A program made the position numbers and the translations under genes. Shown in pieces: positions 37,862 to 63,839 of a DNA stretch of 64,000 nucleotides. The DNA comes from an uncultured Candidatus Micrarchaeota archaeon (GTDB lineage Archaea; Micrarchaeota; Micrarchaeia; Anstonellales; Bilamarchaeaceae). The stretch spans positions 104,603 through 168,602 of the forward strand of contig CAWDBH010000010.1 in the NCBI GenBank assembly GCA_963800555.1, written 5' to 3'. The first letter of the stretch is position 1. Every line of letters begins with the position of its first letter. Below the pieces are notes generated by a model. That model searched no databases. It saw nothing but the letters and a program-made list of their open reading frames with translations, and was not told the DNA's origin.

Positions 37862-39353
<1,492 letters not shown>

Positions 39354-46498: not shown

Positions 46499-46609
46499 GG
46501 GGTCGTGGGCTAACCTGGTAGACTGGAGCCTTCGGGTGAATCTTGCGACATCTAAATGTTCAAGCTTCAGTAAAAGGCTTTGATCTGTGTTCAAATCACG
46601 GCGACCCCA
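46499..46609 (+). tRNA. tRNA-Pro(CGG) with a ~38-nt intron at or next to position 37/38 (alternative register reads Arg-UCG)
   Basis: GGGGTCG...CGACCCC-A acceptor stem, CTGTG-TTCAAAT-CACGG T-arm, and anticodon stem GAGCC/GGCTT around TTCGGG-[intron]-A. The 5' half resembles the archaeal Pro pattern GGGGyCGTGGGGTAGCCTGG. Confidence 0.8.
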
Positions 46610-61421: not shown

Positions 61422-61835
61422 TCACTCGCCGATTATCTTGATGAGCACCCGTTTGCTCCGCTGGCCGTCGAACTCGAAATAGAATATCTGCTCCCATGTG
61501 CCGAGATCGAGTTTGCCGTCCGTTATCGCCATGACGACCTGATGCCCGATCAATTGACGCCAGATATGCGCTGCCGCGTTGTCTTCGCCGCTGTCGTTAT
61601 GCCTATAATCAGCGCCATAGGGCACGAGCTTCTCGAGTATTCTGAGGTAGTCGCTATGGAGGCCGGATTCATTATCGTTCACGACAACCGCTGCCGTGAT
61701 GTGCATCGGGTTTATCAGAACCAGTCCTTCTTTCACTCCGCTTTCCCTGACCGCGTCAGCGACTTCATCCGTGATACGTTCTATCTGTATCTTCTTCCCG
61801 GTGTTCATCTTGAGATATCTTGTGAGCGATTTCAT
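61422..61835 (-). CDS. yjbQ: YjbQ/UPF0047 family (secondary thiamine-phosphate synthase) protein
   Basis: [15 protein letters not shown]...NAAAHI...[16 protein letters not shown]. Confidence 0.88.
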
Positions 61836-61867
61836 TATTGGGTTTGGAATCGGAAGGATAAAAAAGA

Positions 61868-62017
61868 AGCCAGGTAAGGGAGATGTCCTCCCTCACAAGG
61901 GAATCGCGATTCCCTGGGATTTGAACCCCTCTACTCCGCTTTATGCTCGATCATCGACTTTTTTAGTCTCAGAAAAGCGAACTGCAGGCGGATGCATAGC
62001 CGATCTGCCAACCTGGC
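61868..62017 (-). tRNA. tRNA-Cys(GCA) interrupted by two introns (41 nt at 37/38; 38 nt at the T-loop/T-stem junction)
   Basis: Minus strand: GCCAGGT-TG-GCAG-ATCGGCT-ATGC-A-TCCGC-CTGCAG-[41]-A-GCGGA-GTAG-AGGGG-TTCAAAT-[38]-CCCTT-ACCTGGC-T. All stems pair after removal of the two insertions; U33, G37 and U73 are present. Confidence 0.85.
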
Positions 62018-62053
62018 TTCTTGGAAAAATAAAAGGATGAAAGGGTTTAAAAC

Positions 62054-63595
62054 TTAGAGCAGGTACCTGACGGCTTTGAGGTAAGCTTCAACGCTCGTGG
62101 TCACGATGTCATTGCCTTTGGCTGATGAACGGAGAGATTTGCCGTTCATATCCACAGTGACATCCACCCTGATGGGCGCATCGCTTCCACCGGTGATTGC
62201 ATCGACATGATATTTTATCAGTTTCGCCTGCTGATTCCCCAATGCGTTGTTCACGGCTTTTATCGCAGCATCCACAGGTCCGTCGCCTTCGGCAGACCCG
62301 CTTCTACGTTCCGCTCCATTGATCTTGAGCCAAACGAAAGCGGTTGGTGTGTTCTTGTTTCCGGTCGTTGCCTGAAGCTCATCGAGCACCAGCTTATCAT
62401 GGATGCCGGTGCCTTTGGCTTTCTCGACAAGCAGGAGGAAATCGGCATCGCTGACAACGTACCCGTCTTCTTCTTCCATCTGCCGCACGGCCTGAAGGAC
62501 TTCCGGGATTTTATCCTCGTCAAGCTCCACGCCGAGCTCTATGAGCTTCATCTTAATGCTTCCCTTGCCGGATAGTTTGCCGAGCGAAAGCCGGTGTTTT
62601 TGGCCAACAAGTGCCGGGTCATAAGGCGAATACATATCCCATCCTTTGTTCAGGCCGTCGTGGTGTATGCCCGCATCATGCAGGAACGCGAACTCCCCGA
62701 CTATCGGCATGTTCTTGGCTGGTTGTATCCTAGATGCTGCCGCAACAATCGCGGATATCTCCAGGATACTTTTGAGGTTGACTGTGTATATTCCATATTT
62801 CTCCTGGAGCGTGAGCGCGACCTGCTCTATGGGGCAGTTGCCAGTACGCTCCCCTAAGCCATTTATCGTGCCATGGAATCGGTCAGCCCCTGCACGGAGC
62901 GCCTCCAATGTGTTGGCTGTCGCAAGCCCCCGGTCGTTGTGGCCGTGGAACGAGAGATGATCTGGGCCGCCATCCTTGAGATAATTGAAGAGCGCGTATG
63001 TCTCAGCTGGAGTGAACACTCCGAGCGTATCGCAAACGCAGAAGCATTCCACACCAATCTTATGTGCTTCCAGGGAAACGAGTTTGAGGAAATCCGGGTC
63101 GGCTCTGCTGGCATCTTCTGCAAGGAGCTCGACCGTGAGTCTTCGGCTGAGCGCATATTCAACGGATTTGAGTATAGTTGCCAAGGCTTTCTGGTGGAAC
63201 TCGGTATCGCCAGACCTCAGCTTCAGTTTTTTCTCTATGTGGAGATCCGAAGCTGGGAAAACAAGGCTTACCCTTCCTGCTCCGGCTTCGATGACTGCGT
63301 CCACATCCTCGTTCCTGATCCTCGCGAAAGACGAGACGTCCTTGTTCGAACTGAGCGCCTCGCACACGAGGCCTATGGCATCCTTCTCAGACTTGCCGTT
63401 TATCGCGCTGCCGGCTTCTATGATATCTGCGCCGAACCGTTTGAGCTCCTTTGCGAGCGCGGCTTTCACAGCTGGCTTGAAGACCACGCCCGGGGTCTGT
63501 TCGCCATCGCGCAAAGTCGTATCCAATACTTGAATCTTCTTTACAAAATGAGTCTCTACTTTCAACGCATTCACTTTTTCCTTACTGGATTTCAA
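62054..63595 (-). CDS. 2-isopropylmalate synthase / (R)-citramalate synthase family
   Basis: LDTTLRDGEQ, HGHNDRGLATANTL, and the C-terminal LeuA-type regulatory domain. Confidence 0.9.
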   Translation of the reverse strand: MKSSKEKVNALKVETHFVKKIQVLDTTLRDGEQTPGVVFKPAVKAALAKELKRFGADIIEAGSAINGKSEKDAIGLVCEALSSNKDVSSFARIRNEDVDAVIEAGAGRVSLVFPASDLHIEKKLKLRSGDTEFHQKALATILKSVEYALSRRLTVELLAEDASRADPDFLKLVSLEAHKIGVECFCVCDTLGVFTPAETYALFNYLKDGGPDHLSFHGHNDRGLATANTLEALRAGADRFHGTINGLGERTGNCPIEQVALTLQEKYGIYTVNLKSILEISAIVAAASRIQPAKNMPIVGEFAFLHDAGIHHDGLNKGWDMYSPYDPALVGQKHRLSLGKLSGKGSIKMKLIELGVELDEDKIPEVLQAVRQMEEEDGYVVSDADFLLLVEKAKGTGIHDKLVLDELQATTGNKNTPTAFVWLKINGAERRSGSAEGDGPVDAAIKAVNNALGNQQAKLIKYHVDAITGGSDAPIRVDVTVDMNGKSLRSSAKGNDIVTTSVEAYLKAVRYLL

Positions 63596-63712: not shown

Positions 63713-63839
63713 GGGCCTGTAGCTCAGTTTCTTTTTGCTATTTTTTGCCTTATAGGGCAAAAACGCAAAATATAGAGCAACTTGGTAGAGCGTCGGACTT
63801 TTAATCCGCAGGCCGAGGGTTCAAATCCCTCCAGGCCCG
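63713..63839 (+). tRNA. tRNA-Lys(UUU) with a ~54-nt intron in the D-loop
   Basis: GGGCCTG-TA-GCTC-AG-[54]-TTGGTA-GAGC-G-TCGGA-CTTTTAA-TCCGC-AGGCC-GAGGG-TTCAAAT-CCCTC-CAGGCCC-G. Confidence 0.85.

Follow-up and report, generated by a model that had tools for sequence, protein, structure and literature searches.

A 150-nt interval in the 64-kb stretch of archaeal DNA analysed here (hereafter the window) very probably holds a functional Micrarchaeota tRNA-Cys(GCA) gene with two protein-spliced bulge-helix-bulge (BHB) introns, one at the canonical position 37/38 and the other at 58/59, inside the T-loop. The gene lies at 61868-62017 on the minus strand (GCCAGGT...ACCTGGCT), and its introns measure 41 nt and 38 nt. 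Its neighbours, both also on the minus strand, are a CimA/LeuA-family gene (62054-63595) and a UPF0047/YjbQ-like gene (61422-61835); looked up exactly, the product of the latter matched no record. Read from 62017 to 61868 on the minus strand, exons and introns alternate as GCCAGGTTGGCAGATCGGCTATGCATCCGCCTGCAG / TTCGC...GCATAA / AGCGGAGTAGAGGGGTTCAA / ATCCCAGGG...GGACAT / CTCCCTTACCTGGCT, followed by TCTTTTTT. Once the 41 nt and 38 nt are removed, the 71-nt product is called tRNA-Cys(gca) by ARAGORN. This agrees with an earlier note on this DNA, which had read the interval as an interrupted tRNA-Cys(GCA) with 41 nt at 37/38, 38 nt in the T-arm and a 71-nt product carrying U73. The parts of the gene, all on the minus strand, are these:

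61868-62017, minus strand: whole tRNA-Cys(GCA) gene, 150 nt, three exons and two introns; the spliced 71 nt is called by ARAGORN.
61982-62017, minus strand: exon 1, 36 nt, positions 1-37, with the acceptor 5' strand GCCAGGU, the D-arm, the anticodon stem 5' strand and the loop CUGCAG (anticodon GCA, G37).
61941-61981, minus strand: intron 1, 41 nt, at the canonical 37/38 site, placed by the BHB scan; central helix H with 3/4 pairs.
61921-61940, minus strand: exon 2, 20 nt, with A38, the anticodon stem 3' strand GCGGA, the 4-nt variable loop GUAG, the T-stem 5' strand AGGGG and T-loop U54-A58.
61883-61920, minus strand: intron 2 (AUCCCAGGGAAUCGCGAUUCCCUUGUGAGGGAGGACAU), 38 nt, T-loop site 58/59; it holds h' (UCCC/GGGA), a palindromic hairpin further in, and H3 (GGAC), and no other register gives a full BHB.
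61868-61882, minus strand: exon 3, 15 nt, with C59 U60, the T-stem 3' strand CCCUU, the acceptor 3' strand ACCUGGC and discriminator U73.
61923-61929, minus strand: 5' half of the T-loop BHB, h GGG (50-52) and H GUUC (53-56), then the bulge A57 A58 | A with the predicted cut after A58.
61879-61892, minus strand: 3' half of the T-loop BHB, h' GGGA, H GGAC, bulge AU|C and h UCC.
61860-61867, minus strand: TCTTTTTT run directly after the discriminator base, a candidate oligo-T terminator.
61951-61972, minus strand: K-turn-like module in intron 1, read by hand: CUGA, the hairpin GAC(UAAAAAA)GUC, a 3-nt GAU, then GA.

The spliced RNA has the features of a cysteine tRNA. Its acceptor stem is 7 bp long, its D-loop contains GG, U33, G37 and U73 are all present, and its anticodon loop reads CUGCAGA. 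The U that follows ACCUGGC is found in the window gene and in all of its orthologues; a U73 discriminator is the major identity element for cysteine. CCA is not encoded. To judge by its sequence and its place immediately after U73, the TCTTTTTT run is likely an archaeal oligo-T terminator, and a comparable T-rich tract lies 3' of tRNA-Cys in the related loci L001, L015 and L041.

Standard tools pass over this gene. Default ARAGORN reports zero tRNAs in the whole 64-kb window, and ARAGORN with introns allowed and a relaxed score (-i) does not find tRNA-Cys. At the gathering threshold, Rfam matches in the window only the archaeal 16S rRNA and a tRNA fragment at 63776-63831, which is part of a tRNA-Lys gene; in E-value mode it gives no tRNA match over the tRNA-Cys gene. 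The warning in the earlier note that default annotation may under-call tRNAs in this genome therefore holds, since default ARAGORN finds none and Rfam at gathering recovers only part of the Lys gene.

The statement in the earlier note that no open reading frame covers the interval does not strictly hold. A 114-aa ORF with a GTG start at 61696-62040 on the plus strand spans the entire tRNA-Cys gene. This mechanical ORF lies antisense to yjbQ, has no Pfam match and is probably spurious. Were it real, the interval would be protein-coding, or at least not an RNA gene, and its cloverleaf a coincidence, a reading for which the span of the ORF does speak. We give it next to no credence, given the missing Pfam match, the antisense overlap and a pattern of conservation that follows RNA helices, with exon and intron blocks conserved rather than codons.

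The exact site of intron 2 decides the sequence of the mature T-loop. The earlier note had seen CCC at both ends of the second insertion; the repeat exists, but it is TCCC, so that the sequence-level ambiguity spans 59/60 to 63/64. We scanned the 150 nt for every 4-bp helix with two 3-nt bulges, placing the cuts after the second bulge nucleotide. This cut rule is borne out by the crystal structure of the endonuclease EndA of Candidatus Micrarchaeum acidiphilum ARMAN-2 with RNA, in which the bulge is A13-dU14-A15 and the bond cut is dU14/A15, joining its second and third nucleotides (PMC12397907). Over all 150 nt the top BHB was a strict 3-4-3 hBHBh' motif at 58/59; excision there removes exactly 38 nt and again gives a 71-nt tRNA-Cys by ARAGORN. 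Within it, G53UUC56 forms 4/4 pairs with intronic GGAC between the bulges A57 A58|A and AU|C, flanked by an h helix of 3 bp (G50-52 with UCC) and an h' helix of 4 bp (UCCC/GGGA). The palindrome that the earlier note had described in the second intron, GGGAATCG/CGATTCCC, is present.

That note had placed the second intron at the T-loop/T-stem junction, between 60/61 and 63/64, with the intron-proximal CCC in the T-stem and UUCAAAU as the T-loop. A splice there also yields a valid 71-nt tRNA-Cys, uninterrupted orthologues such as L009 and L026 carry UUCAAAU, and the minimum-energy fold of the precursor pairs GGGGU with AUCCC. Yet none of the registers from 60/61 to 63/64 contains a BHB: their central helices have 1, 0, 1 or 3 pairs and their flanking helices none, save one h' pair at 60/61. 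We rejected these registers because the full motif is absent there. The relatives supply independent evidence. What follows UUCAA in L010, L028, L033 and L040 is UGAGG, UGCAC or AGGCU, never AUCCC, so the exon cannot pass position 58 or 59 in these genes and the junction placement is independently excluded for the family. UUCAACU is likewise a T-loop of this set, being present (as TTCAACT) in the uninterrupted orthologues L008 and L031. Taken for the window gene, a junction site is thus quite improbable.

With intron 2 placed at 58/59, the earlier proposal of 38 nt in the T-arm stands and its site moves into the T-loop, to the sole register with a strict hBHBh'. The mature T-loop becomes UUCAACU in place of the proposed UUCAAAU, because the cut falls at 58/59. 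BHB folding at the junctions, a check the earlier note had suggested, gave a BHB at 37/38 and at 58/59 and no full BHB at the proposed T-stem registers. The two placements differ by one base in the product: a 58/59 splice would read ...UUCAACUCCCUU... (C59), and a splice at the T-stem junction ...UUCAAAUCCCUU... (A59).

A BHB-like motif carries little weight by itself. Strict motifs of this kind are common by chance (the 64-kb window has 548, both strands counted), and the one at 58/59 counts only because it is located exactly where excision restores a tRNA. Among 200,000 shuffled introns, 178 matched the BHB quality of intron 2; for intron 1 the figure was 1,186 of 200,000. For the window gene, folding prediction favours another structure over the BHB of intron 2, by 10.2 kcal/mol. 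This minimum-energy fold (61868-61940, minus strand) consists of three consecutive hairpins, namely a T-arm-like GGGGU/AUCCC, the palindrome and GAGGGAG/CUCCCUU; each of the 58/59 cut sites lies on the 3' margin of a hairpin loop. Two relatives, L033 and L040, have the BHB within their unconstrained minimum-energy fold; its cost is +0.7 kcal/mol in L010 and +6.6 kcal/mol in L028. Because the BHB fold lies above the minimum energy, refolding or capture by the enzyme would be required in genes of the window type.

The BHB of intron 1 has one mismatch, C32·U, in its central helix CUGC/GCAU, which therefore has 3/4 pairs. The anticodon stem supplies a 5-bp h, UCG/CGA a 3-bp h', and the bulges read AG|U and AA|A. 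Across 15 genes the 37/38 intron ranges from 22 to 165 nt, and H3 reads GCAG, GCAU, GCUG, GCAA, GCCG or ACGG, with at least three of the four pairs in every gene.

Other kinds of intron were also considered. Self-splicing group I and II introns are hundreds of nucleotides long; the insertions here are just 41 and 38 nt, and Rfam gave no intron family match to them at E-values up to 10, so they do not fit this class. Intron-borne box C/D guides, as in euryarchaeal tRNA-Trp, have pairs of box C (RUGAUGA) and box D (CUGA) flanking guides of about 12 nt. Intron 1 contains only one CUGA...GAUGA pair and Rfam returned no snoRNA or sRNA match over the tRNA-Cys gene, so a guide RNA in intron 1 was dropped on account of the single pair. 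The K-turn-like module listed above could, speculatively, be a binding site for L7Ae, or it could be chance. With another hairpin stem, this layout recurs at 37/38 in the introns of L033 (GGCAC/GUGCC), L040 and L041, and is absent in L015.

Related loci place the gene in its lineage. The best match of the window's CimA is a protein from a JGI metagenome with 85% identity (L001, L002); the next matches have 59-60% identity and include proteins named 'Candidatus Micrarchaeota archaeon'. In L001/L002, tRNA-Cys sits at the same place downstream of cimA, with exons 100% identical and introns of 93 and 44 nt against 41 and 38 nt in the window. At the distant CimA loci L003-L007 (about 60% identity), no tRNA-Cys adjoins cimA and synteny is lost. 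One of these, L003 (GCA_013425375.1, a Micrarchaeota MAG; 1-414), has a neighbouring eRF1 gene of 934 aa with intein and LAGLIDADG endonuclease domains, an intein-containing release factor. A scan with a 20-mer from exon 1, limited to one genome per species, retrieved 30 contigs, and a scan of metagenomes with a 20-mer from exon 2 added five. Sixteen of the 30 exon-1 contigs are titled Micrarchaeota or Micrarchaeia, and the rest are Iainarchaeum, Aenigmatarchaeota or unclassified archaeal MAGs. Judging from the CimA matches, the titles of the exon-1 contigs and the archaeal 16S gene in the window, the host is a member of the Micrarchaeota (DPANN).

Within the scanned contigs, tRNA-Cys comes with no intron, one or two: 16 genes are uninterrupted, 7 complete genes have the 37/38 intron alone, and nine have both. 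These nine are the window gene and those in L041, L015, L001 (also represented by L002 and L039), L034 (where the contig end cuts the gene), L010, L028, L033 and L040. In the eight other contigs the exons are identical or nearly so, and the introns vary in sequence and in length, from 22 to 93 nt and from 38 to 131 nt. All three exons are identical to those of the window in L001, L015 and L041. Exon 1 is identical in these and in L033, and its sole difference in L010, L028, L034 and L040 is A4>G, with a compensating change at position 69 in those whose 3' exon is covered. Exon 2 is identical in all nine.

The splicing motifs persist across this set. In 8/8 complete two-intron genes the 58/59 register offers the only full BHB motif, and h and H of this T-loop BHB show 100% pairing over eight distinct two-intron variants. 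H3 of intron 2 changes from GGAC to GAAC in L028 and GAAU in L034 with all four pairs kept, and L028 has replaced h' wholesale by the 9-bp GCACCUUUU/AAGAGGUGC. In L010, L033 and L040, h' is shifted by four nucleotides and the 5' splice site lies in an internal loop, making it a relaxed site. The helices at the splice sites are thus kept in relatives, and the intron interiors diverge. Spliced products align with uninterrupted orthologues without gaps, save for a variable loop that is 1 nt longer in L009 and L018. The cloverleaf itself is paired in 240/240 cells over 12 orthologous sequences, 9 pairs having changed on both sides; 0/500 shuffles did as well, and slid controls came nowhere close.

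This record bears on whether the locus might be a decayed or disrupted tRNA pseudogene, in which the insertions would stay and no functional tRNA would be made. Two points lend that idea something: the BHB fold is not the predicted minimum-energy fold, and another tRNA-Cys gene could sit elsewhere in the genome. Decay is nonetheless hard to reconcile with three exons that are identical in L001, L015 and L041 and near-identical in five more contigs while the insertions diverge freely, with compensated acceptor-stem changes in relatives, with splice-site helices that survive base changes, and with an oligo-T tract 3' of the gene. The window, moreover, has no second tRNA-Cys by ARAGORN in its default and intron modes. 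We consider a pseudogene highly improbable.

Some intron sequence recurs between genes and positions. An identical 23-nt hairpin, GCACCTTTTTAGGAAAAAGGTGC, with a tail resembling CCAAAAAC, is found in intron 1 (37/38) of L010 and in intron 2 (58/59) of L028; the shared GCACCTTTTTAGGAAAAAGGTGC has a blastn-short E-value of 7.5e-10, calculated in a small intron set. Hairpins of a related T5-loop-A5 type are seen in introns of L001, L016, L024, L028 (intron 1) and L034, and the window's own introns are without the GCACCTTTTTAGGAAAAAGGTGC cassette. A tentative reading, which we think possible but on balance doubtful, is that the T-loop intron is old and fixed in position in a Micrarchaeota clade, its interior having been repeatedly swapped by mobile intron cassettes. 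If true, this would extend BHB-intron transposition to DPANN archaea; to our knowledge, such transposition has been described so far for Thermoproteales.

Two further contigs show a different arrangement. L019 (gene offset about 63-145) and L027 (about 149-250) contain the tRNA-Cys 3' end (for example CCCCCACTCGCCT or TCCCTCACCTGGCTT) twice, with the copies 69 and 88 nt apart and an oligo-T tract after the second copy. The duplication may reflect a further intron near the 3' end with duplicated exon sequence, or an integration scar.

The window contains two more tRNA genes, both interrupted. The screen that combined BHB motifs with ARAGORN was too permissive for these, and their splice sites were derived by hand and then checked:

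46499-46609, plus strand: tRNA-Pro(CGG), with a 38-nt intron at 37/38 (46537-46574).
63713-63839, plus strand: tRNA-Lys(UUU), with a 53-nt D-loop intron at 15/16 (63728-63780).

All three tRNA genes of the window are thus interrupted, as the earlier note had stated. The tRNA-Pro(CGG) intron has a central BHB helix with 2/4 pairs, an h of 7 bp and an h' of 3 bp; the D-stem of this tRNA, GGCU/GACU, has a single Watson-Crick pair, as in ARMAN-2. ARAGORN -i calls tRNA-Leu(taa) at 46499-46609, a miscall of tRNA-Pro(CGG). In tRNA-Lys(UUU), the D-stem strand GCUC forms 4/4 pairs with an intronic copy, GAGC, between the bulges AG|U and AA|C, and the flanking helices are 1 bp each. The anticodon stem of this tRNA has a U27·C43 mismatch, and Rfam aligns only model positions 9-63. 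The window also holds a complete archaeal 16S rRNA gene (37862-39353, minus strand) with no 23S or 5S match elsewhere in the 64 kb; the rRNA genes appear to be unlinked.

The analysis above shows the anatomy of exons and introns, the geometry of the BHBs, exon conservation set against intron divergence, and the lineage. From these we infer the following course of cleavage and ligation; which intron leaves first and what kind of EndA acts are likewise inferred. Transcription of the minus strand would give a 150-nt precursor with a leader and a trailer. At each intron, a 4-bp helix would form between 5'-exon bases and the intron's 3' end, with a 3-nt bulge on either side, and the archaeal splicing endonuclease EndA would cut each bulge behind its second nucleotide. 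The exons would be joined by a ligase (RtcB in archaea) at the predicted junctions ...CUGCAG|AGCGGA... and ...GGGGUUCAA|CUCCCUU..., giving the 71-nt tRNA with the T-loop UUCAACU, to which CCA would then be added.

The endonuclease of the host is, by analogy with ARMAN-2, likely of the ε2 type; none of 53 ORFs from the 64-kb window that were scanned against Pfam has a tRNA_int_endo domain (endA). The earlier note had argued that the interrupted tRNAs imply an enzyme of broad BHB specificity. The tRNA-Cys gene alone does not imply this, because its intron 2 is a strict BHB. What does argue for breadth is the weak motifs of the Lys and Pro genes, together with the relaxed 5' sites in some relatives and the literature on the lineage (PMC3239211). 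With Lys and Pro motifs as weak as these, a plain α4 or α'2 enzyme would not be expected.

The main value of these observations lies in the annotation of tRNAs in DPANN genomes. Default finders miss all three tRNA genes of the window, and genomes of this clade would therefore seem to be without tRNA-Cys, tRNA-Pro and tRNA-Lys. The gene also adds a strict-BHB variant at 58/59 beside the experimentally studied 59/60 intron of ARMAN-2 tRNA-Cys. Together with the eight related contigs it forms a small natural series of genes with 0, 1 or 2 introns of 22-165 nt, which could serve the study of how T-loop introns are gained, retained and remodelled in DPANN archaea. The current understanding of tRNA splicing is unchanged by this case, which is an ordinary one because such a gene is already known from a close relative.

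That relative is ARMAN-2, whose pre-tRNA-Cys(GCA) has a 59/60 intron that is cleaved in vitro by the three-unit ε2 endonuclease (Fujishima et al. 2011, PMC3239211), a cleavage later confirmed and explained structurally (PMC3488258; Miyata et al. 2025, PMC12397907). The same genome encodes a tRNA-Pro(GGG) with two T-loop introns and a tRNA-Pro(CGG) whose D-stem has a single Watson-Crick pair (PMC3239211). The window and ARMAN-2 belong to one phylum-level lineage, and their tRNA-Cys genes agree in identity, in anticodon and in a non-canonical intron that lies in the T-loop's 3' half. The window is also alike in genome style, with many disrupted tRNAs and the same D-stem oddity in tRNA-Pro(CGG) (46499-46609 in the window). 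The introns themselves differ: that of ARMAN-2 is 13 nt long, lies at 59/60 and has a relaxed hBH (BHL) motif, whereas that of the window is 38 nt long, lies at 58/59 by BHB geometry and has a strict hBHBh'. Compared by published description, the ARMAN-2 gene is mentioned with the 59/60 intron only (PMC3239211, PMC12397907), and the window gene has a further 41 nt at 37/38.

Intron 1 follows the canonical archaeal 37/38 BHB layout (Marck and Grosjean 2003, as cited in PMC6379350). Here h is the anticodon stem, the intron's 3' end pairs with bases 32-35, and 36-37-i1 and i40-i41-38 form the bulges. It departs from that layout by one mismatch in the central helix (C32·U), where relatives have another mismatch or none.

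Genes with several introns are familiar from the Thermoproteales and other Crenarchaeota (Sugahara et al. 2007, 2008; reviewed in PMC4090602), and T-loop insertion sites such as 53/54, 56/57 and 59/60, along with multi-intron tRNAs, have long been known in Crenarchaeota (PMC4090602, PMC6379350). Like the window gene, these genes can combine one canonical and one non-canonical BHB intron and are missed by standard tRNA finders. They differ from it in lineage, the window being DPANN, and in the presumed enzyme, which is (αβ)2 in Crenarchaeota and ε2 for the window. A T-loop intron in the tRNA-Cys(GCA) of this lineage is thus already documented, and the window gene adds to it a longer intron, a strict motif and an extra canonical intron.
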